Below, piece after piece: positions 17,770-40,580 of a stretch of 64,000 nucleotides of DNA (its first letter is position 1; each line of letters starts with the position of its first letter). The notes under the pieces are model-generated. The model saw only the letters and a list, made by a program, of their open reading frames with translations. It was not told where the DNA came from and did no database searches. Location: the NCBI GenBank assembly GCA_018002295.1, contig JAGNGI010000004.1, positions 3,345-67,344 of the forward strand. Reading direction: 5' to 3'. A program made the position numbers and the translations under genes. Source of the DNA: Fidelibacterota bacterium. GTDB lineage: Bacteria; Fidelibacterota; UBA2242.

Positions 17770-17771
17770 AA

Positions 17772-18344: not shown

Positions 18345-18362
18345 TCTCAAAAGGTATCTGAA

Positions 18363-19644: not shown

Positions 19645-19660
19645 TTCCGCAGAAGAAGTA

Positions 19661-24276: not shown

Positions 24277-26124
24277 TTGAAAAACGCGACAGAAAATCAA
24301 GTCCCAAAAGGCAAATTTTCACTGGCAAGAGGATTGCTTGTCATCGGAATAGTAGCTGGGATTTGTTTGAGTGACAACCTCTCAGATAGAACATACTGGA
24401 CTTACGATGCTATCTGGTATCAAATATTCCCAGAGCGCTTTAGGAACGGTGATCCGACTAATGATCCAACGATTGAAACGCTAAAAGGCACCTGGCCATA
24501 TGAACCTCAAACGCAATGGAGCATTATGCCCTGGACTGCTGATTGGTATAAACTCCAGCCTTGGGAAAAATCCAACCAACGCGACTTTTACTATAATGCT
24601 CAATTGCGTCGTTATGGCGGTGATATCGAGGGAATAATTGATAAACTCGATTATCTTGTAGATTTAGGAATCAATGCAATTTATTTGAATCCAGTCTTTG
24701 AATCGGCTTCGTCGCATAAATACGGTGCTACAATGTATCATCATATTGATAATAATTTTGGGCCTGATCCGGCTGGTGATATAGCAATTTGGCAAACTGA
24801 AAATCCTAATGATCCTTTGACCTGGCAGTGGACTTCCGCTGATAAATTATTTCTGAAACTAATACAGGAGGTGCATACCCGTCAAATGAAAATAATCATT
24901 GATGGAGTATTCAATCATGTTGGCATACCTTTCTGGGCTTTTCAGGACGTCAAAAAAAATGGAGAAGCCAGTCCATACGCCGATTGGTTTGTGATAGAGT
25001 TCTTTGATGATCCGAGTACAATCGAAGATGAATTTGAATATCAAGGCTGGAATGGAATTCCGGATTTACCGGAGATCTGGGAAGACGAGAATGGTCCTGT
25101 ACAAGGATTTCGGGCGCATATAAAAGCCGTGGTTGAAAGATGGGGTGATCCAAATGGTGATGGCGATCCGTCGGACGGGATTGACGGCTGGCGATTGGAT
25201 GTGGCTGAGAAGGTCAGTAAAAATTTCTGGCGTGATTTTCGCAAATGGGTGAAAAGCATAAATCCCGAGGCATATTTAACTGGTGAAATATGGTGGGAAG
25301 ATTTTATGAATAATAAGATGTTCGATGCTTCACCATGGTTGCAGGGCGATATTTTTGACGGCGTGATGAATTATCGTTTCGGCGATGCTATGCTTAAAGC
25401 CTTTGTTGACAGAGAAATGAGGATAAAACCATCCGAGCTTGATCAATTATTAGGCGATATTAGAGAAAAATATCCGCTACCCGCTCAATATCAACTGCAA
25501 AATATAATTGGTAGTCACGATAATGAGCGTTTTGCCAGTATGTTATTAAATCCAGACCGCTGGATCGATCACGGTGGCAATCTGGTTTACAATAAAGATT
25601 TTAAGATAAACCGTCCTTCGGATGAGCTCCGACAAATCCAAAAGACAATTCTTGTTTTTCAATTTACTTATATCGGAGCACCTTATATTTATTATGGCGA
25701 TGAAGTGGGGATGTGGGGAGCAGATGATCCCGACAATCGAAAACCAATGGTTTGGGATGATATGCAATATGAACCGGAGACTACTCATCCATTTGGAATA
25801 AAGAGACCTGTAGATTCCGTTAAAGTTGATACAGATTTGTTCAATTTCTATAAATCTGTAATAAATCTCAGAAAAAATCATGAATGTCTAAGAAGAGGCA
25901 GGTATAAAACAATATTGACTGACGACAAAAGGGGGATTTTCGGATTTGAGCGTAAATATGATACTGAGACCATCTACATCTTTGCAAATTTGAATGATAA
26001 ACCTATCAAAATGAGCGAGATAAATTTTGATGTCACAAAATGCGAAAAGATTTTTACAGTTAATACCGATACAAATTATCTCGGGTCGAAAGGAATAGTA
26101 GTTTATAAAATTATTAAAGGGTAA
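24277..26124 (+). CDS. GH13 alpha-amylase-family enzyme (neopullulanase/cyclomaltodextrinase-like), exported
   Basis: GH13 regions I (IIDGVFNHVG), II (GWRLDVAEKV), III (GEIWWED) and IV (IGSHDNERF). N-terminal hydrophobic segment. TTG start. Confidence 0.8.
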   Translation: MKNATENQVPKGKFSLARGLLVIGIVAGICLSDNLSDRTYWTYDAIWYQIFPERFRNGDPTNDPTIETLKGTWPYEPQTQWSIMPWTADWYKLQPWEKSNQRDFYYNAQLRRYGGDIEGIIDKLDYLVDLGINAIYLNPVFESASSHKYGATMYHHIDNNFGPDPAGDIAIWQTENPNDPLTWQWTSADKLFLKLIQEVHTRQMKIIIDGVFNHVGIPFWAFQDVKKNGEASPYADWFVIEFFDDPSTIEDEFEYQGWNGIPDLPEIWEDENGPVQGFRAHIKAVVERWGDPNGDGDPSDGIDGWRLDVAEKVSKNFWRDFRKWVKSINPEAYLTGEIWWEDFMNNKMFDASPWLQGDIFDGVMNYRFGDAMLKAFVDREMRIKPSELDQLLGDIREKYPLPAQYQLQNIIGSHDNERFASMLLNPDRWIDHGGNLVYNKDFKINRPSDELRQIQKTILVFQFTYIGAPYIYYGDEVGMWGADDPDNRKPMVWDDMQYEPETTHPFGIKRPVDSVKVDTDLFNFYKSVINLRKNHECLRRGRYKTILTDDKRGIFGFERKYDTETIYIFANLNDKPIKMSEINFDVTKCEKIFTVNTDTNYLGSKGIVVYKIIKG

Positions 26125-26169: not shown

Positions 26170-28968
26170 ATGAGATATAAGGATTGGTTAATAACAGTTG
26201 TTCTGATTTTAACTGCAGGGTATTTATTCGGAGGTAATACTGGTAAAATTACTGGTATAGTTACTGATAGTCAAACTGGTCTTCCTTTAATAGGTTGTAA
26301 CATAATGCTTGAGGATACTTATTTGGGTGCGGCATCCGATACAGATGGACGATATATGATTCTTAATGTACCGCCCGGCGAATATCGTTTAAAAGCTCAA
26401 ATGATTGGTTACCAGCCAAAAGTGATAACCGGCGTGATTGTATCAGCTGATTTGACAACTACTATCAATATTGGGCTTTCGACCCAGGTTTTAGAGGGTG
26501 AAGAAGTGATAGTTACTGCAGAGCGCAAAATGGTTGTCAAAGATATGACTGCGACTGCTTCCCATGTTAAAGCTGAAGAACTAGCCGCTTTACCAGTGAC
26601 TGAAGTTAGCGACGTTCTTGAAATGCAAGCCGGATATGTAGATGGGAGTTTACGGGGAGGCAGAAGAGGTGAAGTTGCCTATTTAATAGATGGTATTCCG
26701 GTAACCGATTCTTATGATCGTAGTGCGGTCATTGATGTCAATAAAAATATGATTCAGGAATTGCAGGTAATTTCCGGAGCGTTTAATGCAGAATACGGAA
26801 AGGTAATGTCAGGCATCGTCAATATCACTACCAAGCAAGGTAGCAACAAGCACGGTGCGTCGCTAGAAATGTATATTGGAGATTATCTTAGTACACATGA
26901 CGAAATCTTTGATAATATTGGGTCAATAAATCCTCTAAATATCCATAATGCTGAAATCAGTTTTTTTGGACCATTAATAAAGGATAAGTTATTTTACAAT
27001 TTCAATACGCGCTATATTTACTTTGGGGGTTGGCTTCAAGGTCAGAACCGTTATAAACCAACTAGTATATTAGCTGTGTCTCCCGATGGTTCGCATTTCT
27101 TGCTGGACTCAACTACTATGTTAGGAGATCAGAAGTGGGTCAATATGAACTGGAACGAAAAGTTGTATTTTCAAGGACAATTAATCTACCGGCTTTCTAA
27201 CCGAAGTAGTATTTATTATAATCTTTTTTACGATAATAAAGATTACCAGGATTATGATCGTATGTTCAAATATAATCCGGCGGGAATGTTAAAGAAAAAC
27301 CTAACCGCTGAAACGCATTTACTGAAGTTTCAGCGACAATTAAGTTCTAAAACCTTTTTCACTCTGGCTGGCTCATATTATTATCGTAAATATACCGGCA
27401 GATTGTCTGCCGATACCAGTTACAACGATAGCACCACCTATGTCCACCCGGCTTACCTTTATCAATATCCTTATCAATTTTATTTTGGTGGGACTCAAAA
27501 TGATCACGAATATCGTGACAGTAGAACATACCTTGCGAAATGGGATATGACTTCCCAGATAAATGGACAACATCAGATAAAGGGCGGTTTGGAATTTCAA
27601 CAGCATGATATTTCATTAAGAACATTTAATATTCGTCCAGCGACTGGTGAGACCTATATAGACTTTGCATCCGGATTGAATATACCATCTACCTGGAATC
27701 CATATATTCATCCGACGATTTTGGATAATAGTACGATTTATGCTAGCTATTACCGTCATAAACCTTATGAATTTGCCGGATATTTACAAGATAAAATGGA
27801 GTTTAGCGAGTTAATCATTAATATCGGGGTAAGATTTGATTATTTTGAACCGGATGGTGTTGTGCTTGCCGATCCCAGTGACCCTGAAATCTATGAGCCA
27901 ATTAAACCTGAAAATCGTTATCATGATCTTAACGGAAATGGTGTTCAGGATCCTGGCGAACCAGAAGTCACTTTGGAGGAACGGAGACAGTATTGGTATA
28001 AAAAAGCCAGCCCAAAATATCAATTTAGCCCTAGAATCGGATTGTCATTTCCAATTAGTGATCGCGGGGTATTTCATTTTTCTTATGGTCATTTTTTTCA
28101 AATTCCCAACTTTAATTATTTATATATGAATCCTGATTTTGATCTTGGTTCTGGAACCGGTAATCAAGGAGTAATTGGAAATGCGGATTTGAAGCCAGAA
28201 CAAACTATCGTGGGAGAAATCGGAGTTCAGCAACAATTAAGTGATAATTTTTCAGTTGACATTACTGCCTATCTGAAAGACATAAGAGACTTGACCGGAA
28301 CGAGAGCAGAAGAGATTATAGTTTATGGCGGAGCGGCCTCTTATAGCCGATTAGTTAATAGTGATTTTGGTGTAGTAAAAGGTATTACTATAGCACTTAA
28401 TCAGCAGAATCCGAGCGGTTTATATACCAGTTTTGATTATACGCTCCAAATTGCTAAAGGCACTGCATCAGATCCGGAAGCATACCGTAATGCGATTGCT
28501 GGTGGAAACCAACCAGAAATTCAACTTAATCCCTTAGATTGGGATCAACGCCATACAATTAATGGAACAGTGGGATATAATCACAAAAATTATGGAATAA
28601 ATTTTATCGGTCGCTGGGGAAGTGGTTTGCCCTATACTCCGCAATCAAGTGAAGATATTACATCACTTTTAACTAATGCTGGTACTAAACCACCTACCCT
28701 AACAATTGATGCTAAATCTTACTACCGATTCACCTTATCAGGAAGATATTCGGTTGAATTATTTATCAGAATTCAGAATTTATTTGATAAATTGAATGAA
28801 GTTAATGTTTATGACGAGACCGGTCGAGCTGGTTTTACGACCGATGAAGCCCGAGTAGAAGCTTTAAATATTAAAACTCCGATTAATTCGGTTCACGAGT
28901 GGTTTACCGACCCAACGTATTATTCCGAACCACGTCGAGTCGAAATAGGAATGAGGATAAGTATATGA
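26170..28968 (+). CDS. TonB-dependent outer-membrane receptor with N-terminal carboxypeptidase-regulatory-like domain (SusC-like architecture)
   Basis: Signal peptide, CarbopepD_reg-like N-terminus (ITGIVTDSQTGLPLIGCNIML…GEYRLKAQMIGY), plug region (VTAERK…LAALPVTEVSDVLEMQAGY…LRGGRRGEVAYLIDGIPV) and a long barrel. No SusD-like gene follows. Confidence 0.65.
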   Translation: MRYKDWLITVVLILTAGYLFGGNTGKITGIVTDSQTGLPLIGCNIMLEDTYLGAASDTDGRYMILNVPPGEYRLKAQMIGYQPKVITGVIVSADLTTTINIGLSTQVLEGEEVIVTAERKMVVKDMTATASHVKAEELAALPVTEVSDVLEMQAGYVDGSLRGGRRGEVAYLIDGIPVTDSYDRSAVIDVNKNMIQELQVISGAFNAEYGKVMSGIVNITTKQGSNKHGASLEMYIGDYLSTHDEIFDNIGSINPLNIHNAEISFFGPLIKDKLFYNFNTRYIYFGGWLQGQNRYKPTSILAVSPDGSHFLLDSTTMLGDQKWVNMNWNEKLYFQGQLIYRLSNRSSIYYNLFYDNKDYQDYDRMFKYNPAGMLKKNLTAETHLLKFQRQLSSKTFFTLAGSYYYRKYTGRLSADTSYNDSTTYVHPAYLYQYPYQFYFGGTQNDHEYRDSRTYLAKWDMTSQINGQHQIKGGLEFQQHDISLRTFNIRPATGETYIDFASGLNIPSTWNPYIHPTILDNSTIYASYYRHKPYEFAGYLQDKMEFSELIINIGVRFDYFEPDGVVLADPSDPEIYEPIKPENRYHDLNGNGVQDPGEPEVTLEERRQYWYKKASPKYQFSPRIGLSFPISDRGVFHFSYGHFFQIPNFNYLYMNPDFDLGSGTGNQGVIGNADLKPEQTIVGEIGVQQQLSDNFSVDITAYLKDIRDLTGTRAEEIIVYGGAASYSRLVNSDFGVVKGITIALNQQNPSGLYTSFDYTLQIAKGTASDPEAYRNAIAGGNQPEIQLNPLDWDQRHTINGTVGYNHKNYGINFIGRWGSGLPYTPQSSEDITSLLTNAGTKPPTLTIDAKSYYRFTLSGRYSVELFIRIQNLFDKLNEVNVYDETGRAGFTTDEARVEALNIKTPINSVHEWFTDPTYYSEPRRVEIGMRISI

Positions 28969-31900
28969 AACATTCGATAAAATATCTTACTATTGAGATT
29001 CTCTCAATTTTGTTAATGACGATTACAACGTCACAAATAATTTTAGCTAATCAAAGTGGGAAAGCTTACCGGCGTAGTTCCATCCATAACGGTAATCTGG
29101 TTCGGACAGTTTTCGGTAACTGGGGAGTCATTGGCCAACCAAGGGAAAAAGGTCCGCGTGGGGCATGGCTTTTTGATACCAATGGATATATCGGCGATGT
29201 CAGTCCAATGGTAGGCGCTGAAGTAAATTATCATTCTGAAGAACTTGACTCGACAATAACATTCCATAGCGTTGTAGTTTGTCCGGTAGATCGCCCGGCA
29301 ACTGCTCGCGAAGAATCGCCTACCGGTGATCAGTGGACTTTTGAGCCGGTTTCCGGTTATTTTAATGAGTCTTCTCAAGGAATAGCTATGAGTACTGATC
29401 AAAATTCGTGGCCTCCTTATTGGCCTGATAAAATGGATGATCCTGAGGATCCGGGTTGGCCAGAGCAATGGAATGGATTTTTTGGAAAAGGGGTAACCAA
29501 TGCTGATCAAGAAAGTTATTTTATTATGGATGATAATAATGATGTTGAATTCAACAGTGGTCACAATCTAAAGGGTGTCTATTTCAAACCTGATAATAGA
29601 GATGCGAATCGCAACGGACTCGGCTTGGAAGTGAAGGTTCGGGGAATGCAATGGGCTCAGTTTCTGGCACAGGATGTAATATTTTGGCTTTATGAAATTA
29701 CCAATACAAGCACTACGGATTATGATAAAGTGGTCTTCGGAATGATAGCTGGAACTTACAACGGAGTGACTGGTACAGATGATTCACCTCAGGAATATGA
29801 TGACGATTATTCTTTCTTTGATGTTGAACGGGATTTGACTTATACTGGTGATTACCCTAATAATAATAGTCGTAATCCTAAATGGCAGGGACCGGTTGGA
29901 CTGGTCGGATATGCTTTTCTGGAAAGTCCCGGTAATCCTTATGACGGCATTGATAATGACGGTGATAATAAACCTGAAGAACATCCTGGTAAAAATTTAA
30001 TTTTTACGGCACCCCTATTTACCGAATCAGATTTCGACTCAGTTGTATATAATAAAGGAGACCAGATAGTATTAATTGATAAAGATTATAAGCGTACTTT
30101 TCACACAATTACCAGTGATACAGAAACGGTTGTAACCAAAGGGATGCAAATCACAATCATTGCGGGACAAACAAAATTAGTAGAAGGAAATGTCCTGGCA
30201 AATGGTTCAATTAATCCAAATGTTTATGACGGCATTGATAATGATCTGGACGGATTAATTGACGAGAATTACCTGTTGCATTATAGACAACGCCGGGTGG
30301 ATCAAAACGGAGTAGTTTTATTTGACACCTTGAATCCGGTAGCCTATAAAGATTATCGAAGGGGATTGGGAATTGGTGATCCTTTGATTGACGAAGCCCG
30401 CAATGATGGACTTGATAATGACGGTGATTGGAATCCTGAAACAGATGATGTCGGTAATGATGGTAAACCAGGTACAAATGATTATGGAGAGAATGACGGC
30501 AAACCTACAGCAAATGAACCGAATTTCGATAAAACCGATGTTGATGAATCGGACCAAATCGGTTTAACTAGTTTTAATTATTTCGTTCCATCTAATGCTT
30601 ATCCAATGGCGGATGATGAATTGCTCTGGGAATGGTTAAAACCGGGATATTTTGATGTGCCGTCGAGTATTCAAAATGGCAAACCAGTTGCCGGGGAAGA
30701 TGGCGATTTCATTTATGGCTCGGGGTATTTTCCACTACGAGCCGGTGATACCCAGCGTTTTTCATTGGCTTTAGTATATGGTTATGATTTGACCGATCTA
30801 CTCAAGAATCGGGAAACGGTTCAGGATATTTACAACAGTGATTATCGTTTTCCCCAACCGCCGGATAAGCCGACGGTAACGGCGGTTGCCGGTGACGGCA
30901 AGGTAACCCTTTACTGGGATAGAAAGGCTGAAGAAAGTATCGATCCAGTAACTAAGGAGAAAGATTTCGAAGGTTATAAAATCTATAAAGCTACTGATCC
31001 TGATTTCAATGATGTATTTGTTATTACCGATGCCAATGGTGTGCTGACTGGTTACAAGCCACTAGCTCAATTTGATAAGGTCAATGGAATCAAAGGAATT
31101 TTCGAGGCGAGTTCGGATTTGTATCAAAGTGCTGGCGGTTATTCTTACTATTTAGGCTCTGACAATGGTTTAGTGCATTCCTACGTTGATGAAGATGTTC
31201 AGAACGGACGAATCTACTATTATGCGGTAGTCGCCTATGATCACGGTGACGCCAGTAATGATATTTTTCCATCGGAAAATACCAAGTTTATTTCGGTGCA
31301 GTCAGATGGGACGGTAATTACCGATATAAACACCGTTCAAGTTAGACCAACTGCGAAAGTTGCCGGTTATGATGAACAAAATAGTGAATTAGCCCTGAAA
31401 CACCTGGAAGGTCCGGCAACCGGCGTTATTCAGTATAAAATTATTGATGAAACACTATTAAATGGGCATACCTATAAAGTGAATTTCACCGATACACGAA
31501 CCGACGGAATTGATAATGATGGCGATTGGAATTATTTAACTTGCGATGTTGGCTCTGATGGCAAACCAGGTACAAATGATTATGGAGAAGGGGATGGCAT
31601 ACCTACGAGCGGTGAGCCGAATTTTGAATGGAATGATGAAGATGAATTTGCTCAAATTACATCCACTTACTCTGTTTTAGATAAAACAGGCGTCGAAGAA
31701 TTTATCAATCTTGACACTTCTTATGTTTGGCTTACCTATCAAAATATTCAATATGACGATATTTTAATTGCCAGTGAGTCAGATCCGAATAACTATTTAT
31801 CATTAAGTAAATTCGAAATAGATACCTTACGAGGAAAAATTAAAATAAAAGCGGGTAGTAACCTAAAAAGTGGTAGTTATCGTATATTTTATAAGTATTA

Positions 31901-32876
31901 TCCTGTCTTTAAAAGTCCAAACATTCAGTATAGTCCTTATATGAAAGAAACAAAAGACTCCGATATTTTCGATGGCGTTGAGTTAGTGTTTAGTAATCCG
32001 TGGGATATTAAAATGATTAAATCTAAGTCGGGCTGGAATTCGACTGATAGAATTATTGATTTTACCTTTAGAATTGATCAGGCTTTATTGGAAGGCGATA
32101 CCATAGTTGGAGTACAATATCCCGGAATATATGAGCTGCGAGTCGGTGATAGTAGCGAAGTATTATATGAAACTCCCAAAGAATTCTTAAAGTCCATCTA
32201 TCCTAGTTTCTCAGATGTAATTATAAGAACCCTGGTAAAGAAGACTAATTTTTATCTATTTAATGTGTTGGATTCTGTAAAGATACCTTTTCTTTATAAT
32301 GGTGGAATAAAAAACAGTTATGGAATTTATGAAATAACGCCAGGTGGCTTGATTGAATCTTATATTCCTAAACCGGATAGTACTTATCAATATTCCTGGG
32401 TGATAAACTTTCCGCCTATTTCAGATAAAGTCACACCGCCCCGGTTCCTAAAAGGTGACATTCTCCATATTGAAACAGAAATCCCCTTCCGTAATGGTGA
32501 TATTTATGAATTCACTACTGAAATTCCTAATGTAGATGATGAAGTGGCTAAATCTAGCTTAGATGATATTCAGGTTGTCCCTAATCCTTATGTGGTTGCC
32601 AATACGATGGAATCGCCATTACCGCCTGCCATTACCAGTGGCCGAGGGGAAAGGCGGATTGAATTTCGCAAATTGCCTAACGATGCCAAAGTACATATCT
32701 TTACATCAGCCGGGGCGCATGTAATTACCCTAAATCACAACGGCAATATTCATAATGGTACTTTAGCCTGGAATGTTAAATCGAAAGAGAATCTCGATGT
32801 AGCATTTGGGGTTTATTACTATATCATAGAATCATCGGTCGGTAAAAAATCCGGCAAATTAGCAGTAATAAAATAG
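28965..32876 (+). CDS. 1303-aa secreted protein with thrombospondin-type-3-like Ca-binding Asp repeats and T9SS C-terminal sorting domain
   Basis: ATG overlaps the receptor stop (ATGA). Signal peptide present. Repeats DGIDNDGDNKPEEHPG, DGIDNDLDGLIDEN and DNDGDWN…VGNDGKPGTNDYGENDGKPT occur twice. Fn3-like module. C-terminus VVPNPYV…KVHIFTSAGAHVITL…GVYYYII…KSGKLAVIK fits a T9SS type-A CTD. Confidence 0.6.
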   Translation: MKHSIKYLTIEILSILLMTITTSQIILANQSGKAYRRSSIHNGNLVRTVFGNWGVIGQPREKGPRGAWLFDTNGYIGDVSPMVGAEVNYHSEELDSTITFHSVVVCPVDRPATAREESPTGDQWTFEPVSGYFNESSQGIAMSTDQNSWPPYWPDKMDDPEDPGWPEQWNGFFGKGVTNADQESYFIMDDNNDVEFNSGHNLKGVYFKPDNRDANRNGLGLEVKVRGMQWAQFLAQDVIFWLYEITNTSTTDYDKVVFGMIAGTYNGVTGTDDSPQEYDDDYSFFDVERDLTYTGDYPNNNSRNPKWQGPVGLVGYAFLESPGNPYDGIDNDGDNKPEEHPGKNLIFTAPLFTESDFDSVVYNKGDQIVLIDKDYKRTFHTITSDTETVVTKGMQITIIAGQTKLVEGNVLANGSINPNVYDGIDNDLDGLIDENYLLHYRQRRVDQNGVVLFDTLNPVAYKDYRRGLGIGDPLIDEARNDGLDNDGDWNPETDDVGNDGKPGTNDYGENDGKPTANEPNFDKTDVDESDQIGLTSFNYFVPSNAYPMADDELLWEWLKPGYFDVPSSIQNGKPVAGEDGDFIYGSGYFPLRAGDTQRFSLALVYGYDLTDLLKNRETVQDIYNSDYRFPQPPDKPTVTAVAGDGKVTLYWDRKAEESIDPVTKEKDFEGYKIYKATDPDFNDVFVITDANGVLTGYKPLAQFDKVNGIKGIFEASSDLYQSAGGYSYYLGSDNGLVHSYVDEDVQNGRIYYYAVVAYDHGDASNDIFPSENTKFISVQSDGTVITDINTVQVRPTAKVAGYDEQNSELALKHLEGPATGVIQYKIIDETLLNGHTYKVNFTDTRTDGIDNDGDWNYLTCDVGSDGKPGTNDYGEGDGIPTSGEPNFEWNDEDEFAQITSTYSVLDKTGVEEFINLDTSYVWLTYQNIQYDDILIASESDPNNYLSLSKFEIDTLRGKIKIKAGSNLKSGSYRIFYKYYPVFKSPNIQYSPYMKETKDSDIFDGVELVFSNPWDIKMIKSKSGWNSTDRIIDFTFRIDQALLEGDTIVGVQYPGIYELRVGDSSEVLYETPKEFLKSIYPSFSDVIIRTLVKKTNFYLFNVLDSVKIPFLYNGGIKNSYGIYEITPGGLIESYIPKPDSTYQYSWVINFPPISDKVTPPRFLKGDILHIETEIPFRNGDIYEFTTEIPNVDDEVAKSSLDDIQVVPNPYVVANTMESPLPPAITSGRGERRIEFRKLPNDAKVHIFTSAGAHVITLNHNGNIHNGTLAWNVKSKENLDVAFGVYYYIIESSVGKKSGKLAVIK

Positions 32877-32886
32877 CGGTGAGAAC

Positions 32887-33900
32887 ATGAATAGAAAATT
32901 ACCTACTATAATTTCGACAGTACTGATTAGCACTATATTTTTAAATGCTCAGAATAAAGAAGGAACTGCCGCCGGTCAATTTTTGCAAATTCCAGTCGGT
33001 GGGAAGGCAATTGCAATGGGTGGCGCATTCACGGCTCTGGCCGATGATGCGAGTGCAATTTATTATAATCCGGGAGCAATTTCCCGAATTAGTAAAAATA
33101 AATTGTATGTTTCTCAAACTAATTGGTTAGTGGGAGGGAAGCATCAATTTATAGCGGCTCAGGTAATGGCAACCAGCAATGATATCATTGGAATTGGCGT
33201 TGATTACTTAGATTACGGTGAGCGAGAAAAAATAACTACGGTAGCGGAGCCAGATGGTACCGGTGAATATTGGGAAGCAAGTGATTTAGCTTTTAGCTTG
33301 GGCTATGCTCGCAACTTAACCGACCGCTTTTCAATCGGAGGCAGTGTCAAATTCATTCAACAAAATATCTGGCATGTCAGCGCAACGGGATTTGCCGCTG
33401 ATCTGGGATTATTATTTAAAACTCAATTCAACGGACTTCAGATTGGTGCCAGCATGCGGAATTTTGGTAGCGAGTTACAATTAACAGGACGCGATTTAAT
33501 TACTCAGGTTGACCTTGACGAAGAAGCCTCTGGCAATAACGAGACAATCGTCGCTTATCTTAAAACTGATAAATGGCCAATTCCTTTAACGTTTACTATA
33601 GGAGTCGCGATGCCGGTGATCAATAGTAATCAATTTGTTTTGACACTGGCAGGTGATGTCGTACGTCCTACGGATAATAGCCAGACGCTTAACTGTGGGG
33701 CTGAGGCAATAATAATGAAAATGATTAGTCTTCGTGCCGGTTATCAAGCTTTATTTCGCGAAAATAAACAGCAAGGATTGACCGCTGGTATTGGCTTGAA
33801 ATTGCCAATCCAATATGCCGATTTTTATTTTGATTATTCTTATCAAGAATTTGGATTTTTTGGGAATCTTTCAACTATGTCTATATCAATAGGTTTTTAA
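32887..33900 (+). CDS. PorV/PorQ-like (UPF0164-type) outer-membrane beta-barrel protein
   Basis: Signal peptide, then FLQIPVGGKAIAMGGAFTALADDASAIYYNPGAI, an N-terminal signature I recall for PorV/PorQ-family barrels. Alternating-residue beta-strand character; ends in F. Confidence 0.45.
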   Translation: MNRKLPTIISTVLISTIFLNAQNKEGTAAGQFLQIPVGGKAIAMGGAFTALADDASAIYYNPGAISRISKNKLYVSQTNWLVGGKHQFIAAQVMATSNDIIGIGVDYLDYGEREKITTVAEPDGTGEYWEASDLAFSLGYARNLTDRFSIGGSVKFIQQNIWHVSATGFAADLGLLFKTQFNGLQIGASMRNFGSELQLTGRDLITQVDLDEEASGNNETIVAYLKTDKWPIPLTFTIGVAMPVINSNQFVLTLAGDVVRPTDNSQTLNCGAEAIIMKMISLRAGYQALFRENKQQGLTAGIGLKLPIQYADFYFDYSYQEFGFFGNLSTMSISIGF

Positions 33901-33922: not shown

Positions 33923-35974
33923 ATGAAAAAAGCTACTGTTTTGATGTTGATGTTGACTCTAATTGCTGTCTCGGGATTAGCCGATGTGACAGTTAATTAT
34001 ATTGTCAATACATCAACTCTGCAAGGGGTCACCGATTCGACCCATCAGGTCCAGATTTGTGGTGCGGAAGTCGGGCCAGAAGGTGTTGAAAAGTGGTACA
34101 ACCTTTTTCTGACCTGGGGTGATGAATCACCACTAGCCGCCAATATTGGAGGAGATTACTGGAAATTGACGATTGCTTATCCGGATTCGATGATTGGCTG
34201 GCGGATGGCTTATAAGGTTCGTTATAAGGCTAATGAGGATGATGCCTTTACGTGGGAGAATGTAACTGGTGGTGGCAACCGTATGTGGGTTTTACCGGCT
34301 ACTGACACGACTTTAGCGGTTGCTTATGTTAACAATGATTTCAATCCGCCCTTTGCGCCATCCGATTCTGTTGACATTTTAGTTCGGGTAAATATGGAGA
34401 ATTACGAAGACAGTTTCTCACTATTGTCGGTTGTTGGCCATTGGCCTTTCTGTGATCCAGCCTGGACACCTGGGGCACTGCCTTTGACTCAAGAAGGCAC
34501 CTCCGATTACTGGAGCAGAACGATCCGGATTCCACAGGCTGTGATGGATACCGTTGATCGAGTACAACCTCTCGGTGCAGAGCATCCCGGGGTACTAATG
34601 TATCGTTTTGCGATCGGTAATGATTGGAACAATTCAGAAAACTTGAATGGTAAATACTGGCCAGGTAATGAAAACCGGATCATTGCTCTGCATCCTGGCT
34701 TGGAAGATACGACCTTGGCTTGGAAATATTGGAATGACAATCCACCGGCCGGATTTATAGCGGAAGATACCGTTGATATTACTTTTACCGCCGATTTAAC
34801 TAATGCCATTGCCAATAAAGGTTTTGCAGTTGGCGATACCATTTTAGTCCGGATGGGTTATTTTAACAGTCTGTCTTCAACAATGGATGCTAATCTGCTT
34901 CGAATTTCCGGAACCTACCTATATTCGACCACTTTTACAGATGTTCCAGTAGTTCTTAACGAACCGCTTTATTATCAGTATTATCTTGTAAAAGATGCCG
35001 TAGAACAACGTGAAGTATATTTCAATTTTGATTATGAAGGCGAAGACGTTACGCGAGCAGAAAGACGTGCATACGTCATAACCGGCGATGCTGAAATCAA
35101 CGACATCGAGGATAGCGAAACCGATCCACGTCGCATGCCCAAATTCAGGAATAACCAGAAACTTAGTCAGGCGGTTACCGTAACTATTGAATGCGACCTG
35201 CGTCCGGCCTATTATCAAGTCTGGGCTGGTTCGACGCTTGACGATATTCAAGGCAACATTGACATTACCCCAGCGATGCTGGAAGCCAATCCAGATACTC
35301 TCGCTAAATTAGGTTTATGTATCAATGGCCCAATGTCCAACAATGGCGAAGGTACCTGGGCAACTTGGGGTGGAACGTTAGCCAGTGACGCTACTCGCAG
35401 AATGTATGACGATGGAACTAATGGTGACGAGACTGCTGGTGATACCATTTATACGATTGTATACAATTTTACCACTGAAAAAACCATCGGTCAGGAATTC
35501 AAATTCGGGATTGGCGGCGGAGATAATGAAAGCAGTTATGGTCTTAACCATATAGAAAATATTGATGACACGAATCCGACTTTTACACTGGAGGTTCAGT
35601 TTGGCTCGATCAATCCGAATTTCTATTCGGCTTGGGATTTTAATGCCAGAGCACCTAAGGTCGGAATCAAAAATCAAAATGCCACTATTGCCAAGGAATT
35701 CTCCCTCTCTCAGAATTTTCCAAATCCATTCAATCCAACTACAGAAATTCGTTTTACTATCTCGGAAAAAAGCGATGTTCATTTGACGATATACAACCTG
35801 CTTGGTAAGGTTGTCAATAAGGTTACTTATAATAACCTGGACATCGGCAATTACAGCTACGTCTGGAATAGTAAAGACCTAAACGGCAACAGTGTTGCCT
35901 CCGGTATTTATTTCTATGAACTACGGGCTGGTAGTAAATATCATGCTATCAAAAAGATGGTTTTGATGAAATAA
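33923..35974 (+). CDS. secreted protein with four tandem CBM20-like starch-binding-type modules and T9SS C-terminal sorting domain
   Basis: Signal peptide. Four ~110-aa repeats each ending in a CBM20-like W…WE…NR pattern (e.g. FTWENVTGGGNRMWVLP). C-terminus NFPNPFNPTTEIRFTI…LTIYNLLGKVV…SGIYFYELRAG…KKMVLMK is a T9SS type-A CTD. Confidence 0.55.
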   Translation: MKKATVLMLMLTLIAVSGLADVTVNYIVNTSTLQGVTDSTHQVQICGAEVGPEGVEKWYNLFLTWGDESPLAANIGGDYWKLTIAYPDSMIGWRMAYKVRYKANEDDAFTWENVTGGGNRMWVLPATDTTLAVAYVNNDFNPPFAPSDSVDILVRVNMENYEDSFSLLSVVGHWPFCDPAWTPGALPLTQEGTSDYWSRTIRIPQAVMDTVDRVQPLGAEHPGVLMYRFAIGNDWNNSENLNGKYWPGNENRIIALHPGLEDTTLAWKYWNDNPPAGFIAEDTVDITFTADLTNAIANKGFAVGDTILVRMGYFNSLSSTMDANLLRISGTYLYSTTFTDVPVVLNEPLYYQYYLVKDAVEQREVYFNFDYEGEDVTRAERRAYVITGDAEINDIEDSETDPRRMPKFRNNQKLSQAVTVTIECDLRPAYYQVWAGSTLDDIQGNIDITPAMLEANPDTLAKLGLCINGPMSNNGEGTWATWGGTLASDATRRMYDDGTNGDETAGDTIYTIVYNFTTEKTIGQEFKFGIGGGDNESSYGLNHIENIDDTNPTFTLEVQFGSINPNFYSAWDFNARAPKVGIKNQNATIAKEFSLSQNFPNPFNPTTEIRFTISEKSDVHLTIYNLLGKVVNKVTYNNLDIGNYSYVWNSKDLNGNSVASGIYFYELRAGSKYHAIKKMVLMK

Positions 35975-35983: not shown

Positions 35984-36024
35984 AAGAGGAAGGACGGATT
36001 TTCCGTCCTTCCTCTTTTTCTTTG
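35984..36024 (+). terminator. strong intrinsic terminator
   Basis: AAGAGGAAGGACGG-atttt-CCGTCCTTCCTCTT, a perfect 14-bp stem, followed by TTTTCTTT. Sits right after the 33923..35974 gene. Confidence 0.75.
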
Positions 36025-36048: not shown

Positions 36049-37881
36049 ATGCATATAGTAGATTATTTTATTATCTGTATTTATCTGATAGGAATCCTCA
36101 TAGTGGGTTTATGGTTCCAGCGTAAAGCCTCTGAGGGTATTAATTCATATTTTCTGGGTAATCGGTCATTGCCTTGGTGGGCTTTAGGAGCATCCGGCAT
36201 GGCATCCAATCTTGATATAAGCGGAACTATGATTATTGTTGCCCTGGTCTATGCCTTAGGAGCCCGAGGTTTATATATCGAATTTCGGGGGGGTGTTACC
36301 TTGATTATGGCATTTTTAATGATTTTTATGGGTAAATGGAACCGGCGTTCAAAAGTGATGACTTTAGCGGAATGGATGGAATTCCGTTTTGGGAAAGGTA
36401 CAGAGGGGCGCTTAGCGCGGATGATTACGGCTTTGACCTCGATTCTGGTCACGATTGCGATGGTAACTTATTTTGCTGTGGGTGGAGGAAAATTTTTAGA
36501 CAAATTTTTAGGTATTCCAAATTTTTTGGGTTTATCGTCGCAATTTTGGGCGGCGGCGGTTCTGATCGCCATTGCGATGATTTATACGGTTGCTTCCGGA
36601 TTATATGGAGTGGTGTGGACAGATGTATTTCAAGGTTCACTGATATTTTTAATGATTTTATACGTAGTTATCCAGGTGTTTCATTTTGATATACCGTCGG
36701 AATTTTCTGTAGTTATGCCTTTGAAGGATGCTGCAGGAGGTGGATTCCAGTTTTTCCCCACAACTTATCAGGAGTGGACCGACGTTCTCCCCAAATTCAA
36801 ATTATCGATCGATTCCAGCAGTGTCTATAGTATGTACAATTTATTCGGAATCGCTGTACTGTTTTATTTGCTTAAGGTAGTTATCGAGGGTTGTGGAGGG
36901 ACCGGCAACTATATGATTCAACGTTACTACGCCGCTAAAGATGATCGTGAAGCTGGATTACTCTCGTTATTCTGGACATTTTTATTATCATTCCGCTGGC
37001 TTTTTGTGGGAGCTATGGCAGTCTGGGGGATATATCTCGGAACTCAAATTACCGATCCCGAGATGGTTTTACCCATTGTGGTCCAAACTGTACCAATTGG
37101 AATAAAAGGATTTCTGGTGGCTGGTATGATGGCGGCGGCAATGTCAACTTTCGACTCGACTGTTAATGCTGGTGCGGCTTATTGGGTCAAAGATATTTAT
37201 CTTGAATATATAAATAAAAATGCTTCTGATCATCAGCAGATACGACAAAGCTATGGAGCCTCGATAATTATTGTAGTTCTTGGACTGGTTCTAATGCTTA
37301 TTATTAAGAATATTAATGAAATTTGGGGCTGGATTACTATGAGTATAGGAGCCGGCTTGATTGTGCCCCAATTACTGCGCTGGTATTGGTGGCGACTAAA
37401 TGGTTATGGTTATACTATCGGTATGGCTGCCGGAATGCTAGCTTCGATCATCTGGAAAATTATCGCCCCTGAAGCAACCGCCGAATACTGGTCATTTCTA
37501 TTTGCCGCCGGAATTAGTACCGTCGCTACGGTTATCGGCACCCTTTTAACCGAACCAACTGACGAGAAAGTATTGGATAATTTCTACCGAGTTACCCGTC
37601 CATTTGGTTTTTGGGGACCAATCCGAGCTAAATTACCCGAAAAACTGATATCTCAAATCAATCGTGAAAATCGACGCGATATAATCTCAATTTTCTTCGC
37701 CGTGCCTTGGCAGGTGTGCCTGTTTTTGATGTGGATGGTTCTAGTGATGAAACGCTATGATACTTTCCTTAGCTTATTACTGATTGTAGTAACACTATCA
37801 ACAATATTATACTTTACCTGGTTTCGTCATCTTGCGACAGAGGTAAACATCGAATCCGATGCCGATTCATCTTCGGGGTAA
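36049..37881 (+). CDS. sodium:solute symporter family (SSF) transporter
   Basis: 610 aa, ~14 TM segments, SSF-type glycine-rich helices. Located between the glycan-binding and regulator genes. Confidence 0.7.
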   Translation: MHIVDYFIICIYLIGILIVGLWFQRKASEGINSYFLGNRSLPWWALGASGMASNLDISGTMIIVALVYALGARGLYIEFRGGVTLIMAFLMIFMGKWNRRSKVMTLAEWMEFRFGKGTEGRLARMITALTSILVTIAMVTYFAVGGGKFLDKFLGIPNFLGLSSQFWAAAVLIAIAMIYTVASGLYGVVWTDVFQGSLIFLMILYVVIQVFHFDIPSEFSVVMPLKDAAGGGFQFFPTTYQEWTDVLPKFKLSIDSSSVYSMYNLFGIAVLFYLLKVVIEGCGGTGNYMIQRYYAAKDDREAGLLSLFWTFLLSFRWLFVGAMAVWGIYLGTQITDPEMVLPIVVQTVPIGIKGFLVAGMMAAAMSTFDSTVNAGAAYWVKDIYLEYINKNASDHQQIRQSYGASIIIVVLGLVLMLIIKNINEIWGWITMSIGAGLIVPQLLRWYWWRLNGYGYTIGMAAGMLASIIWKIIAPEATAEYWSFLFAAGISTVATVIGTLLTEPTDEKVLDNFYRVTRPFGFWGPIRAKLPEKLISQINRENRRDIISIFFAVPWQVCLFLMWMVLVMKRYDTFLSLLLIVVTLSTILYFTWFRHLATEVNIESDADSSSG

Positions 37882-37902: not shown

Positions 37903-38736
37903 ATGGATATTTTTCAGGATAATGTTCTTCATAAAATGATGCAACTGGGCTTTACTAATTATGAAGCCCGCACTTACCTCGGACTACTGAAATTGAGTCC
38001 TGCTACCGGTTATGAAATCAGTCAATTGGCTCACGTTCCTCGTTCCGTAGTTTACTCGGTATTAAAGCAGTTAGAATCGCGAGGTATCGTAATTTCGATT
38101 CATGATAAACCGCGCCGATATATCCCTTTGGCACCGGACGAGATGCTGAAGCGGATGGAGACCGATTATGCCAGTCGAGTATCGAACCTTAAAGACGATT
38201 TAGCCGAACTCAGTAATAAATCAGGCACCGAGGGATTCTGGAACTTACGTGGATACCAATCTTTAATGCAAACCTGTGAGACGTTAATCCGCGAAGCTCA
38301 TAAATCTATCTACATTTCCGGCTGGCAACGTGAGATTTCGCTCCTTAGAGAGCACTTACTAAATGCCTGTAAACGCAATGTTTTTGTCGTAATTTTTTCC
38401 TTTAATGAAATTAATCCGCCAATCGGAGAAACCTTGGCTTATGGCATTCCAGAAGAAAAACTGGAACATTATTGGGATCGGAAATTAATTTTGGTAACCG
38501 ATTCGAAAAATTTAATTATGGGACCAGCTAATCAGAAAGAAGATGAGCAAGCCATCTGGACTCAGAATAAAGCGGCACTAACAATTGCTACCAATTATAT
38601 TATTCTGGATATAACCCTTTTCGGTCAGCGAATGAATATGGATATTTCTAACATTATTGCTGGTATGTTGACTGACGAATTTGAAAAAGTTGATGATCTC
38701 ATTCAAGAAGCCATTGAAAAACACAAAAAGGCTTAA
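37903..38736 (+). CDS. TrmB-family sugar-responsive transcriptional regulator
   Basis: N-terminal HTH LGFTNYEARTYLGLLKLSPATGYEISQLAHVPRSVVYSVLKQLESRGIV matches the TrmB DNA-binding domain. The C-terminal domain is the length of a TrmB sugar-binding domain. Confidence 0.7.
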   Translation: MDIFQDNVLHKMMQLGFTNYEARTYLGLLKLSPATGYEISQLAHVPRSVVYSVLKQLESRGIVISIHDKPRRYIPLAPDEMLKRMETDYASRVSNLKDDLAELSNKSGTEGFWNLRGYQSLMQTCETLIREAHKSIYISGWQREISLLREHLLNACKRNVFVVIFSFNEINPPIGETLAYGIPEEKLEHYWDRKLILVTDSKNLIMGPANQKEDEQAIWTQNKAALTIATNYIILDITLFGQRMNMDISNIIAGMLTDEFEKVDDLIQEAIEKHKKA

Positions 38737-38759: not shown

Positions 38760-40580
38760 ATGACCAATATGCCTCGAGTGTTACCTTTAATTTTTGCATT
38801 ACTTATGATTTTAAATAATTGTGAAATAAACCAGAATTTGCAGAGTTTGAACGGCAAATGGTTGTTCAAGTACGATCGCAACGGCATCGGTGATACTCAA
38901 GGTTATTACCGCACCGAATATGATCGGAAAGACTGGAGCACTATAAATGTTCCAGCCTTCTGGGATGATCCGCATTATGACGGAATCGGTTGGTACGCGA
39001 CTGAATTTAAACTTAAAAAACCGCTGGGTAATAACCGACTGGCACTTGTTTTTGAGGCGGTTGACGATGACGCCGTCGTATATCTTAACGGCGAAAAAGT
39101 TGGTGAACATGCCGGTTACGGAATCCAATTTTACCTTGATATAACTCATCAAATCATACCGGGAACATCCAATTTATTAGTCGTGCGTATCAATGATACC
39201 GGTGGAGCGGGCGGGATTACCGGTAATGTCCTGTTGCAATATTATACCGATGAGACAGAACTTCTACAATCAGAATTTTCTCAAAAAGAAGCAAACCCAG
39301 TTCCCGATTGGGTAAAATCAGCTTGCCTTTATGAAGTGTTCGTCAGAGCCTATAGTCCGGAAGGTAACTTTCAAGCACTGACTGAGGATTTACCGCGACT
39401 CAAATTACTCGGAATAGATTGTATCTGGTTGATGCCGATTTTCCCAATCGGCGCTAAACACCGCAAAGGCTCAATGGGCAGTCCTTATTCAATCCGTGAC
39501 TTCAAGAGTATCAATCCGGATCTAGGGACAGAGTCGGATTTGAAAAACCTCGTTACCAGTGCCCATCAACCGGGAATAAAGGTTATTCTCGATATTGCTT
39601 GCAATCACAGCTCCTGGGATAATCTACTTATAGAAGAACACCCCAATTGGTACACTCAAGATGCGCAAGGTAAAATAATTGCCCCGAATGAGAATTGGAG
39701 TGACGTAGCCGATTTTAATTATAATCAAACCGGTTTGCGTGAATATATGTGGGAGGTATTAGAATATTGGGTCAAAGAGTTTGATATAGATGGATACCGG
39801 CTCGATGTCGCTGAACTGGTACCAGATGATTTCTGGAAAACAGCCGCACACCGCCTCCAAAAAATCAAACCGGATATTTTAATGCTGGCGGAAGGCGATC
39901 ATCCTCGTTTGTATCTTAATGGTTTTCATTTGACCTATGGTTGGAATACAAGGCGGGCTTTTTATCAGATTATTAAAAACAATTATCCGGCTGAATTTTT
40001 AGCTCAAACTCTGAGGAAAGAGTATTATCGTTACCCTAAGAATGCGCTCAAAATGCGTTTTACCGAAAATCATGATGAAGCGCGAACTATGGCTTTATTT
40101 TCACCTGAACAGACTATGGTCTTGACCTTCCTGATATTTACCTTGCCGGGCGTCCCGATGATTTATGCTGGACAGGAAATTGGCGTTAGCGAAAAGCCAT
40201 CTCTATTCGAGAAGGATGTTATCAACTGGCGTCAGTTTGATAAAAGTTTAAATGAATTAATCACGAAAATGAATGAACTGCGGCGCAACATTTCTGCTCT
40301 ATCATCGGACACATACCAGGTTATAAATACTTCCGACCCGGAGAGCATCTTCGCATTTTCTCGATATAATGCTCAAGAAGTTGTACTTATTGTTACCAAT
40401 TTGAAAAGTAAATCTCAGATGGCGACGATTGATTTGGCGCCGATTTCAGCGAAAATTCCCAATACTGAACCGGAATTATTGGTCGGAACTGGAGCATTTT
40501 TGCTGGAAAATAATACATTATATTTGCCGTGTTACGGATATGATTATTATTTATTCCGGTTTGAGACCAAAAATGATTAA
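38760..40580 (+). CDS. GH13 alpha-amylase-family enzyme with N-terminal GH2-N-like (sugar-binding jelly-roll) domain
   Basis: N-terminal ~170 aa follows the Glyco_hydro_2_N pattern (DWSTINVPAFWDD…GIGWYATEFKL…LVFEAVDDDAVVYLNGEKVGEHAG…LLVVRIND). Then GH13 regions I (VILDIACNHSS), II (GYRLDVAELV), III (MLAEG) and IV (FTENHDEAR). Confidence 0.75.
   Translation: MTNMPRVLPLIFALLMILNNCEINQNLQSLNGKWLFKYDRNGIGDTQGYYRTEYDRKDWSTINVPAFWDDPHYDGIGWYATEFKLKKPLGNNRLALVFEAVDDDAVVYLNGEKVGEHAGYGIQFYLDITHQIIPGTSNLLVVRINDTGGAGGITGNVLLQYYTDETELLQSEFSQKEANPVPDWVKSACLYEVFVRAYSPEGNFQALTEDLPRLKLLGIDCIWLMPIFPIGAKHRKGSMGSPYSIRDFKSINPDLGTESDLKNLVTSAHQPGIKVILDIACNHSSWDNLLIEEHPNWYTQDAQGKIIAPNENWSDVADFNYNQTGLREYMWEVLEYWVKEFDIDGYRLDVAELVPDDFWKTAAHRLQKIKPDILMLAEGDHPRLYLNGFHLTYGWNTRRAFYQIIKNNYPAEFLAQTLRKEYYRYPKNALKMRFTENHDEARTMALFSPEQTMVLTFLIFTLPGVPMIYAGQEIGVSEKPSLFEKDVINWRQFDKSLNELITKMNELRRNISALSSDTYQVINTSDPESIFAFSRYNAQEVVLIVTNLKSKSQMATIDLAPISAKIPNTEPELLVGTGAFLLENNTLYLPCYGYDYYLFRFETKND

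Follow-up and report, generated by a model that had tools for sequence, protein, structure and literature searches.

General features of the locus

The window analyzed here is a stretch of 64,000 nucleotides of contig JAGNGI010000004.1 (positions 3,345 to 67,344, forward strand; assembly GCA_018002295.1) from a Fidelibacterota bacterium, with a G+C content of about 40%. This phylum of the FCB (Fibrobacteres-Chlorobi-Bacteroidetes) group is also called Candidatus Marinimicrobia or Neomarinimicrobiota. Our subject is the gene at 32887..33900 (+), which encodes a 337-aa outer-membrane beta-barrel protein of the PorV/PorQ family, a family that takes its name from two type IX secretion system (T9SS) proteins, and the relation of this barrel to the proteins encoded around it. 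An earlier note, made from the DNA letters alone, had placed the gene inside a substrate-utilization locus. The substrate can now be narrowed to alpha-glucan, as the locus contains three genes of glycoside hydrolase family 13 (GH13), a TonB-dependent receptor, a sodium:solute symporter (SSS) and a TrmB-family regulator. Between 24277 and 43506 every gene lies on the + strand.

The first gene of the putative operon (24277..26124, +) encodes an alpha-amylase-family GH13 enzyme (Pfam Alpha-amylase, 187.9 bits) that resembles cyclomaltodextrinases and maltodextrin glucosidases; its best NCBIfam matches, to cyclomaltodextrinase, are below cutoff. It is followed by the receptor (26170..28968, +), which has a CarboxypepD_reg-like N-terminal domain, a Plug and a barrel (PF13715, PF07715 and PF00593) and matches the SusC/RagA model TIGR04056 at its N-terminus only, with 71.8 bits against 368 and no full match. 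Next come a 1303-aa secreted protein of no Pfam or NCBIfam family, here called BIG (28965..32876, +), the barrel, and a 683-aa secreted protein (33923..35974, +). The last of these carries a choice-of-anchor-X motif and a canonical type-A T9SS C-terminal domain (CTD; PF18962, 34.9 against 27 bits; TIGR04183, 35 against 23), and is probably a surface glycan-binding protein. The receptor stop codon overlaps the BIG start codon (ATGA, 28965-28968), 10 nt separate the BIG stop from the barrel start, and 22 nt separate the barrel stop from the 683-aa gene. Ten nucleotides past that gene is an intrinsic-terminator-like hairpin (35984..36016, +) with a 15-bp stem, 8 GC pairs and a T-run. Because the spacing is tight and a strong hairpin occurs only after the fifth gene, the genes from the first GH13 to the 683-aa protein look like one transcription unit in the sequence. 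A candidate sigma-70-like promoter (TTGACT-17-TATATT, 10/12; 24217..24245, +) lies 32 nt upstream of the first gene. It is weak, and promoter-like sites are not enriched in the window (75, against 61 +/- 9.7 in shuffles).

Beyond the hairpin are the SSS symporter (36049..37881, +), likely the inner-membrane sugar importer, the TrmB-family sugar-sensing transcriptional regulator (37903..38736, +), a GH13 enzyme with a signal peptide and a GH2-N-like sugar-binding domain (38760..40580, +), and a GH13 enzyme with a type-A T9SS CTD (40573..43506, +), which is likely a surface or secreted amylase. The mechanical TTG start of this last gene, at 40429, would place about 150 nt of it within the GH13 gene before it. 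With the ATG at 40573, probably the true start, the overlap shrinks to 8 nt and the protein begins with a plausible signal peptide, MINNHLNKILYKVGALCLMFFSTQILIAQ. No SusD-family match was found in the 64-kb window with Pfam or NCBIfam.

The barrel is a PorV/PorQ-family protein

The barrel gene begins with ATG. Its product consists of a signal peptide (aa 1-21), a conserved N-terminal segment that lies inside the barrel (aa 22-71) and the barrel itself (aa 72-337), which ends with an aromatic residue (F337). The N-terminal sequence, MNRKLPTIISTVLISTIFLNA|QNKEG, is of the kind expected of a Sec signal peptide. Residues 22-71 have a mean top-residue frequency of 0.74 in the homolog alignment, and the family signature (FLQIPVGG...YYNPG; 32980..33081, +) is found within this most conserved part, at residues 32-65, FLQIPVGGKAIAMGGAFTALADDASAIYYNPG. 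In a profile search the signature region aligns with the N-terminal region of Flavobacterium johnsoniae PorV. The earlier note had described a 337-aa open reading frame (ORF) with a signal peptide, an N-terminal signature and a PorV/PorQ-type barrel; the first two are there as described, the signature agreeing position by position, and the family assignment is upheld by the searches that follow.

The NCBIfam model NF033709 (PorV/PorQ family) gives 188.5 bits against a cutoff of 90 (E=2.3e-55), the match spanning residues 28-337 of the protein and positions 2-326 of the 326 in the model. The Pfam family UPF0164 (PF03687) is also above cutoff (27.6 against 21.4 bits). Pfam PorV (PF19572) is below it in the window protein (16.2 against 27), and is precomputed as present in most homologs. 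A public protein that is 99% identical is named "PorV/PorQ family protein" by NCBI. The other barrel families raised in the earlier note fit less well: no PorP/SprF model among Pfam and NCBIfam matched the barrel at E<=1, and the FadL model Toluene_X (PF03349) scores 20.8 against 29.7 bits, on the 48 N-terminal residues 28-75 only. A search of the PDB with the single sequence returned no match, and a search with a profile of 53 barrel homologs returned PorV (6H3I_F, E=4e-13) as its sole significant match and found no FadL chain. An AlphaFold2 model (pLDDT 79.4, pTM 0.75) shows the N-terminal segment followed by 14 strands. Foldseek ranks PorV first on this model (8GL6_F and 6H3I_F, TM 0.71-0.72), ahead of FadL/TodX (TM about 0.55) and BamG (9HIV_F, TM 0.51). 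Thus the best match is not to a FadL/OmpP1-type transporter, and the barrel is a member of the PorV/PorQ family and not of FadL type.

Within the family, the barrel scores highest against the PorQ equivalog (T9SS_PorQ, NF033711), with 130.4 bits, which is below the cutoff of 220. Scores are lower for the PorV equivalog (T9SS_OM_PorV, NF033710; 55.7 against 250, N-terminal half only), PorV2 (61 against 325) and BamG (NF053685; 21.6 against 250). The barrel is therefore somewhat nearer to PorQ than to PorV, and by the NCBI thresholds it is neither core protein.

Two predicted extracellular loops of the barrel are strongly conserved. Loop L2 (33214..33276, +; aa 110-130, ..PDGTGEYWE) is long and, at a mean top-residue frequency of 0.73, highly conserved, and is a candidate partner-binding surface. 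Loop L4 (33490..33588, +; aa 202-234) has a frequency of 0.72 and a pLDDT below 50. The strands reach 0.64 and the periplasmic turns 0.57. The topology was taken from the 14-strand model, with the C-terminal strand assumed to end in the periplasm. Conserved extracellular loops are unusual for outer-membrane proteins. As modeled, L2 and L4 would match a conserved protein partner at the cell surface, and the combination of conservation and low pLDDT in L4 is as expected of a loop that becomes ordered only when a partner binds.

A separate observation concerns the signal peptide. In the barrel and in the consensus of its homologs (A1), cleavage is predicted at A-Q (AQ; 32947-32952 in the window), leaving an N-terminal Gln. 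The consensus of BIG homologs (A2) also has AQ; the window BIG has ILA-NQSG instead (29043-29051). The A-Q cleavage in the barrel recalls the "Q-rule" for Bacteroidetes signal-peptidase-I substrates, a rule that is described as not valid for the entire FCB group (PMC5837995).

BIG and its C-terminal domain

BIG has a signal peptide that lacks a lipobox Cys, four DxDxDG-like motifs, one or more FN3 domains, a galactose-mutarotase-like beta-supersandwich and, at its end, a variant CTD. A single-sequence search found no relative in the PDB. The protein has more than 2,400 homologs, and the best 120 of these are all at least 51% identical to it, come from several phyla and are called "hypothetical protein" wherever they are named. 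A model of residues 25-1200 (pLDDT 80, pTM 0.70) is almost all beta, and Foldseek returned FN3-level matches only. The N-terminal part of about 850 residues stays conserved from one substrate class to the next, and two internal regions are variable, which fits a constant scaffold with variable specificity regions. BIG is not a SusD homolog and is probably not an enzyme; it does contain a carbohydrate-binding-type domain.

The last 120 or so residues of BIG are its best conserved part, with a mean identity to the window protein of 66% compared with about 55% for the rest. They correspond to the CTD (32517..32873, +), with the consensus VVPNPY..A...E-PLPP..SGRGER.I.F..LP....IFT..G.....L......G...W.LK..ENLD.A.G.YFY......G...GK.A.IK., in which a conserved insert of 16 residues stands out (..E-PLPP-x-x-SGRGER-x-I-x-F..). 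The type-A models (PF18962/TIGR04183) do not match the window BIG, and Por_Secre_tail reaches E<=1 in only 5 of 27 homologs. In an hhalign comparison with nine local type-A CTDs, the BIG CTD aligned over 79 columns with a probability of 94.8% (E=5e-8), the 16-residue insert being specific to BIG. Judged by this profile homology, the C-terminal domain of BIG is a T9SS-CTD homolog of a distinct subclass, and it is the proposed ligand of the barrel. The earlier note had the barrel between two CTD-bearing proteins. The downstream protein does have a bona fide type-A CTD; for the upstream protein (28965-32876) the description holds at the level of profile homology to type-A CTDs, its family-model matches being sub-threshold.

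Assignment of the BIG CTD to type B was considered and dropped. The type-B Pfam family CHU_C (PF13585) matches 26 of 27 BIG homologs, always sub-threshold (20-24 against 27 bits), and type-A CTDs of the same lineages score likewise; the other type-B model, TIGR04131, does not match BIG.

We scanned all fetched loci and the window in six frames with hidden Markov models (HMMs) of the barrel and the CTD. Of 93 barrels, 92 are immediately preceded by a BIG-type CTD, and the 93rd is at a contig end. Conversely, each of the 92 complete BIG-type CTDs has a barrel after it at a distance of no more than 400 nt; since barrel homology was the means of collecting the loci, it is the barrel-to-CTD direction that is informative, the reverse being largely ascertainment. 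Two unusual loci separate the CTD from the remainder of BIG. In the second unit of locus L092, a 680-aa protein has no BIG N-terminal core, yet the CTD variant is retained (iE 7e-16) and the protein has a barrel of its own, with 28% identity to that of the window. In locus L018, an 849-aa protein has the region that precedes the CTD in BIG together with a type-A CTD, and no barrel follows it. Because of these two proteins, the sequences point to the CTD as the element that is paired with the barrel.

Conservation of gene order in relatives

A pattern scan with one genome per species yielded at least 492 confirmed relatives, of which the best 80 (44-98% identity) were used. They come from Neomarinimicrobiota, Kryptonia, Ignavibacteriota/Melioribacteraceae, KSB1 and metagenome-assembled genomes (MAGs) labeled Bacteroidota, the taxonomic labels of MAGs being unreliable in places. 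One species-representative Neomarinimicrobiota MAG (L009) has the locus at 98% identity. Around barrel homologs at 80%, 56%, 50%, 48% and 47% identity the order is the same: receptor, a protein of about 1200-1300 aa without Pfam domains, barrel, CTD protein. Counts of gene order by tblastn were made on 85 non-duplicate loci, gathered by barrel homology. A BIG homolog is immediately 5' of the barrel in all 83 testable loci (median gap 25 nt), and a receptor homolog is immediately 5' of BIG in all 64 testable loci (median gap 18 nt). Downstream of the barrel, a CTD-type protein is encoded on the same strand in 62 of 67 loci, and its N-terminal part is variable. The enzymes encoded around close orthologs are all active on alpha-glucans: GH13, GH77, GH66 with a CTD, and GH31 together with GH97.

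Four loci (L035, L036, L028 and L031) carry the labels Acidobacteriota, Syntrophomonadaceae or Chromatiales. With 46-51% identity between their genes and the versions of Marinimicrobia and Ignavibacteria, mis-binning or mislabeling of MAG contigs is likelier than genuine presence in those groups.

The family extends well beyond these loci. When 1.84 billion representatives of clusters at 50% identity were searched exhaustively with a profile, 2,028 matched the barrel family at E<=1e-30, 10,547 at E<=1e-10 and 23,149 at E<=1e-3, with a smooth decay of scores. Representatives 29-33% identical to the window barrel were used to seed a further search, and six contexts of this distant set were examined. 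In L090 (WOR-3) the order is receptor, 1101-aa protein, barrel, a CTD protein with a carbohydrate-binding module (CBM), and the start of a second unit. In L092, on a 4.2-Mb contig, it is receptor, 1198-aa protein, barrel and GHL10-CTD, directly followed by a second triad of receptor, the 680-aa protein and a PorV-like barrel. L093, on a 1.6-Mb contig, has a CBM9-CTD protein, receptor, 990-aa protein, barrel, GH3, GH16-CTD and GH3-CTD, an enzyme set of beta-glucan type. L094 (5.4-Mb contig) has receptor, 1122-aa protein, barrel and GH2, and L089 (Calditrichaeota) has receptor, a BIG split into three ORFs, and barrel. L091 (CP070762, 5.2 Mb) is a copy disrupted by insertion sequences (IS) that adjoins GH5/CBM4_9 and GH116-CTD genes. 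The BIG profile (A2) matches the upstream proteins of all six contexts, with E-values from 1e-304 to 1e-73. Altogether the unit is found in Marinimicrobia, Ignavibacteriota, Kryptonia, KSB1, Calditrichota and WOR-3, sometimes in tandem, and beside carbohydrate-active enzymes (CAZymes) that are GH13, GH66, GH31/97, GH16/GH3 or GH2. The second cargo of L092, much shorter than BIG, has in common with it no more than the FN3 and CTD end, which suggests that the barrel/CTD pair is a transferable anchoring cassette.

The tandem receptor-cargo-barrel units, complete or nearly so, lie at 3566-20842 of L092 and 2603-19746 of L090. Two copies are decayed. At 6741-9988 of L089, BIG is present as ORFs of 132, 665 and 212 aa; at 2945-9986 of L091 (CP070762.1), the unit is cut short by IS110-type and DDE transposases, and what is left is a 562-aa C-terminal fragment of BIG that precedes an intact barrel.

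A probable dedicated paralog that may anchor BIG

The barrel is very probably a PorV/PorQ-family paralog dedicated to its module. The earlier note had proposed as much, in preference to a core T9SS component, and we reach the same view: equivalog scores are below cutoff for PorQ, PorV and PorV2, orthologs and more remote relatives of the barrel are always in the same transporter-linked unit, two copies occur in a single MAG (L041 and L044), and modules stand in tandem (L092 and L090). Our results refine that proposal in two respects. The two neighbors are not equal partners, the constant one being the upstream protein of 1303 aa with its special C-terminal domain, and the barrel belongs to a receptor-centered unit that is widespread outside classic Bacteroidota. 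PorV is typically encoded with porU. No PorU-like gene was found in the window or in any fetched neighborhood, no second PorV/PorQ gene in the window, and no weaker PorV-family match in about 1.6 Mb of fetched flanks. Neither neighbor of the barrel is a PorZ: the PorZ model NF052228 gives 19.6 against 260 bits on the CTD of the 683-aa protein only, and no NCBIfam model matches BIG.

What the barrel does is most simply put as anchorage of BIG through the CTD of BIG, a reading to which we give a probability of roughly 0.6. BIG, having a signal peptide without a lipobox, would be exported by Sec, and would cross the outer membrane through the T9SS by means of its CTD, whose homology to T9SS CTDs is described above. 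The CTD variant would then be left uncleaved and, instead of being linked to a glycolipid like type-A cargo, would stay on the conserved extracellular loops of the barrel; we infer such retention because of the strict gene pairing and the conservation of the loops. It would resemble the holding of PorZ by PorQ, of PorU by PorV and of type-B cargo by PorP/SprF. PorQ does retain the PorZ CTD and PorV the PorU CTD, and "cognate PorV-like beta-barrels" have been proposed to protect CTDs from cleavage (PMC10202324). Type-B cargo, in turn, needs and binds PorP/SprF-like barrels encoded next to it, as in PorP-PG1035 and SprF-SprB (PMC9143113; PMC10202324).

A wider, SusCD-like picture of the receptor-BIG-barrel unit is more tentative, and we place it somewhat short of an even chance. 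The barrel would tether BIG beside the receptor. BIG, which has a carbohydrate-binding-type beta-supersandwich and FN3 domains and no catalytic domain, would capture the oligosaccharides that the GH13 enzyme with a CTD sets free and offer them to the receptor, and would thus be a functional stand-in for SusD and the surface glycan-binding lipoproteins (SGBPs) of the polysaccharide utilization loci (PULs) of Bacteroidota. For import, the receptor would be followed by GH13 enzymes in the periplasm and by the SSS symporter, with TrmB in control, as the annotations of these genes suggest.

Several points weigh against anchoring and against this wider picture. The BIG CTD fails the curated type-A and type-B models, and its dependence on the T9SS is argued from profile-profile homology and from analogy. 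No core T9SS genes occur within the 64-kb window. The loop topology comes from a model, and loop conservation was measured among fairly close orthologs (at least 46% identity). Contact of the receptor with BIG or with the barrel is suggested by gene order and translational coupling only. Finally, an N-terminal core of BIG that is conserved across substrate classes would also fit a role unrelated to glycans, such as a structural cap or a part in assembly.

Among other explanations, the one that survives best, though we consider it unlikely, makes the barrel a transient cargo-specific shuttle, which would pick up the BIG CTD at the translocon of the T9SS and then pass it on, with BIG released or attached in some other way. 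Its nearest solved structure is indeed PorV in translocon complexes, including the substrate-bound 8GL6, PorV has been described as a shuttle (PMC10202324), and strict gene pairing suits a dedicated shuttle as well as an anchor. However, the HMM score is nearer to that of PorQ, the stable anchor of PorZ, than to that of PorV (130 against 55.7 bits). The conservation of the unusual CTD variant suggests a lasting structural role, and the tight translational coupling suggests stoichiometric co-assembly. The known cognate barrels encoded beside their partners (PorP/SprF and PorQ) are, moreover, all anchors (PMC10202324; PMC9143113).

It is less probable still that the barrel serves the downstream 683-aa type-A protein, or both neighbors, as the earlier note implied. 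Proximity alone would allow it, as the 683-aa gene is 22 nt away inside the same terminator-bounded unit and a CTD-type protein is 3' of the barrel on the same strand in 62 of 67 loci. Yet the gene is missing in the other five, in some loci other genes stand between it and the barrel, and L093 and L094 have in its place a GH3 or GH2 gene with no CTD. The 683-aa protein itself has an ordinary type-A CTD of the sort carried by many unlinked cargo proteins, and the type-A protein of L018, which shares the pre-CTD region of BIG, has no barrel after it, whereas BIG-type CTDs are paired with barrels in 92 of 92 cases.

We regard as improbable to a similar degree that the barrel is an accessory of the receptor complex independent of the T9SS, acting as a platform like BamG or as a lateral channel like FadL. 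BamG, a FadL-like barrel beside BamA, serves as a platform to which an extracellular protein is attached, holding it against a larger barrel with no T9SS role (PMC12578637), and the FadL-superfamily fold, the weak BamG and Toluene_X matches and the lack of core T9SS genes in the window would be in keeping with such a function. However, BamG reaches 21.6 of 250 bits, the FadL model is below cutoff, and PorV is clearly the best match in structure and sequence. The domain invariably paired with the barrel is a T9SS-CTD homolog by profile, the loci are rich in type-A CTD proteins, implying an active T9SS, and nothing in the context hints at a hydrophobic substrate.

That the barrel is the organism's core PorQ or PorV, present in a carbohydrate locus by chance, is very improbable, for although NCBI names it only "PorV/PorQ family protein" and a divergent core protein could fall below equivalog cutoffs trained mostly on Bacteroidota, its synteny with receptor and BIG is 100% over at least six phylum-level lineages, genomes have multiple copies, including tandem modules with different CAZymes, and the paralogs track substrate-specific loci (GH13, GH66, GH31/97, GH16/GH3 and GH2).

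Comparison with known systems

The proposed anchoring of BIG by the barrel has a close counterpart in PorQ/PorZ of the Porphyromonas gingivalis T9SS attachment complex. PorQ belongs to the same NF033709 family and is similar in size (its model has about 335 aa), and its stable hold on the uncleaved PorZ CTD at the cell surface (PMC10202324) is the mode proposed here. The systems differ in that the partner of the window barrel is the 1300-aa or so BIG with its CTD variant and not PorZ, and in that the barrel is part of a TonB-receptor uptake operon, with several substrate-specific copies per genome, outside classic Bacteroidota. PorV (LptO; F. johnsoniae, PDB 6H3I and 8GL6) shares the 14-stranded FadL-type barrel and the same conserved N-terminal segment. 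At 402 aa, the F. johnsoniae protein is about 60 residues longer than the window barrel, and PorV, present in one copy, shuttles type-A cargo in general and anchors PorU, whereas the window barrel is multi-copy and locus-specific.

The arrangement of the genes recalls PorP/SprF with type-B cargo, where a gene for cargo with a CTD other than type A likewise adjoins that of its cognate barrel, and the cargo, uncleaved, is anchored by that barrel without need of PorU or PorV (PMC9143113; PMC10202324). The window barrel, however, is of the PorV/PorQ family, and the BIG CTD is sub-threshold for type B and has its own conserved insert. PorP/SprF pairs are found in motility or adhesin loci, while the window pair sits in a TonB-dependent uptake unit.

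With SusC/SusD the window locus shares a CarboxypepD_reg-like receptor followed by a translationally coupled gene for a surface protein. As in a PUL, substrate-specific CAZymes, binding proteins, an inner-membrane transporter and a regulator surround this core, and the core recurs with different CAZymes. SusD, though, is an alpha-helical TPR-like lipoprotein, whereas BIG is all-beta (FN3, supersandwich) and has no lipobox, and the window unit has a third obligatory component in the PorV-like barrel. BamG is unlike the window barrel in binding lipoproteins instead of CTD proteins, and its partner-contacting loops are reported to be poorly conserved, in contrast to the highly conserved L2 and L4. 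FadL, TodX and OmpP1 share the 14-stranded superfamily fold and an N-terminal segment inside the barrel; the window barrel is about 80-90 residues shorter and is found in a carbohydrate locus. We also considered the "atypical PUL" chu_1276-1280 of Cytophaga hutchinsonii as a counterpart and set it aside as a loose analogy, since no PorV-like or T9SS element has been reported for it and no homology was established (PMC12016534).

In the full-text literature, subscription-only papers not being covered, we found no description of the receptor-BIG-barrel unit, of the BIG family or of the CTD variant, and the paper on the Caldithrix abyssi genome is silent on the unit (PMC5317091). The barrel family itself is already known, through the family-level annotation of NCBI. 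What would be new is the application of cognate-barrel/CTD anchoring to TonB-dependent glycan uptake in FCB phyla other than Bacteroidia.

Other features of the window

Divergent beside the alpha-glucan locus, at 22626-23393 (-), is a gene for a response-regulator receiver fused to an AHJR-like (restriction-endonuclease-fold) domain in place of the usual DNA-binding output; the relative with 80% identity (L001) has it conserved at the corresponding position. Directly past the last GH13 gene are an IS200/REP-associated tyrosine-transposase-like gene (43982-44632, +) and an IS3-family transposase (45472-46269, -). The same relative has a signal-peptidase gene after the last GH13, and the window transposases look like lineage-specific insertions. 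They are followed at 46721-49687 (+) by a gene for a 988-aa protein with a CotH kinase, two lamin-tail and chitobiase-C/Fn3-associated domains and a type-A T9SS CTD, which would be a secreted CotH-like kinase, and by an L-arabinose cluster (49862-56745, +) with genes for an aldose 1-epimerase, an SSS transporter, an FGGY kinase, a class II aldolase (AraD-like) and an L-arabinose isomerase. Toward the other end of the window are a tRNA-Pro(GGG) gene (11274-11350, +), a tmRNA gene (13636-13989, -; tag peptide ENANSFGTVAYA, Rfam 184.7 bits) and a complete Rnf-type operon (14148-20665, +; RnfC, D, G, E, A and B) with RseC/MucC-like and ApbE genes after it.

Implications for glycan uptake in FCB lineages

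To our knowledge, the polymer degraders outside Bacteroidota that are abundant in the environment (marine SAR406/Marinimicrobia, Ignavibacteria, KSB1 and Calditrichota) have SusC-like receptors, many T9SS cargo proteins and no SusD. Receptor, BIG and PorV-like barrel may together be a general glycan-import core of the SusD-lacking FCB lineages (Marinimicrobia/Fidelibacterota, Ignavibacteriota, Kryptonia, KSB1, Calditrichota and WOR-3), a proposal that we hold tentatively and for which we would give slightly less than even odds. If it is true, the capture partner of the receptor is not a lipoprotein but a T9SS-exported protein, which a PorV-family barrel of its own holds in the outer membrane by way of a CTD type not classified before. 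This would be a third architecture for taking up glycans across the outer membrane, and the T9SS would have a new structural use in the assembly of nutrient transporters.

For surface polysaccharide capture in SAR406/Marinimicrobia, Ignavibacteria, KSB1 and Calditrichota, the unit is a concrete candidate machinery, and the barrel together with the BIG-type CTD offers a simple genomic marker for PUL-like loci in the non-Bacteroidota phyla of the FCB group. BIG has homologs in the thousands, is more than 50% identical between phyla and is assigned to no family, and no relative with its complete architecture has been solved; it merits the definition of a family and a structure. For the T9SS, anchoring of BIG would extend the rule of a cognate barrel and an uncleaved CTD, known from PorQ-PorZ, PorV-PorU and PorP with type-B cargo, to about 2,000 clusters and a new CTD variant.

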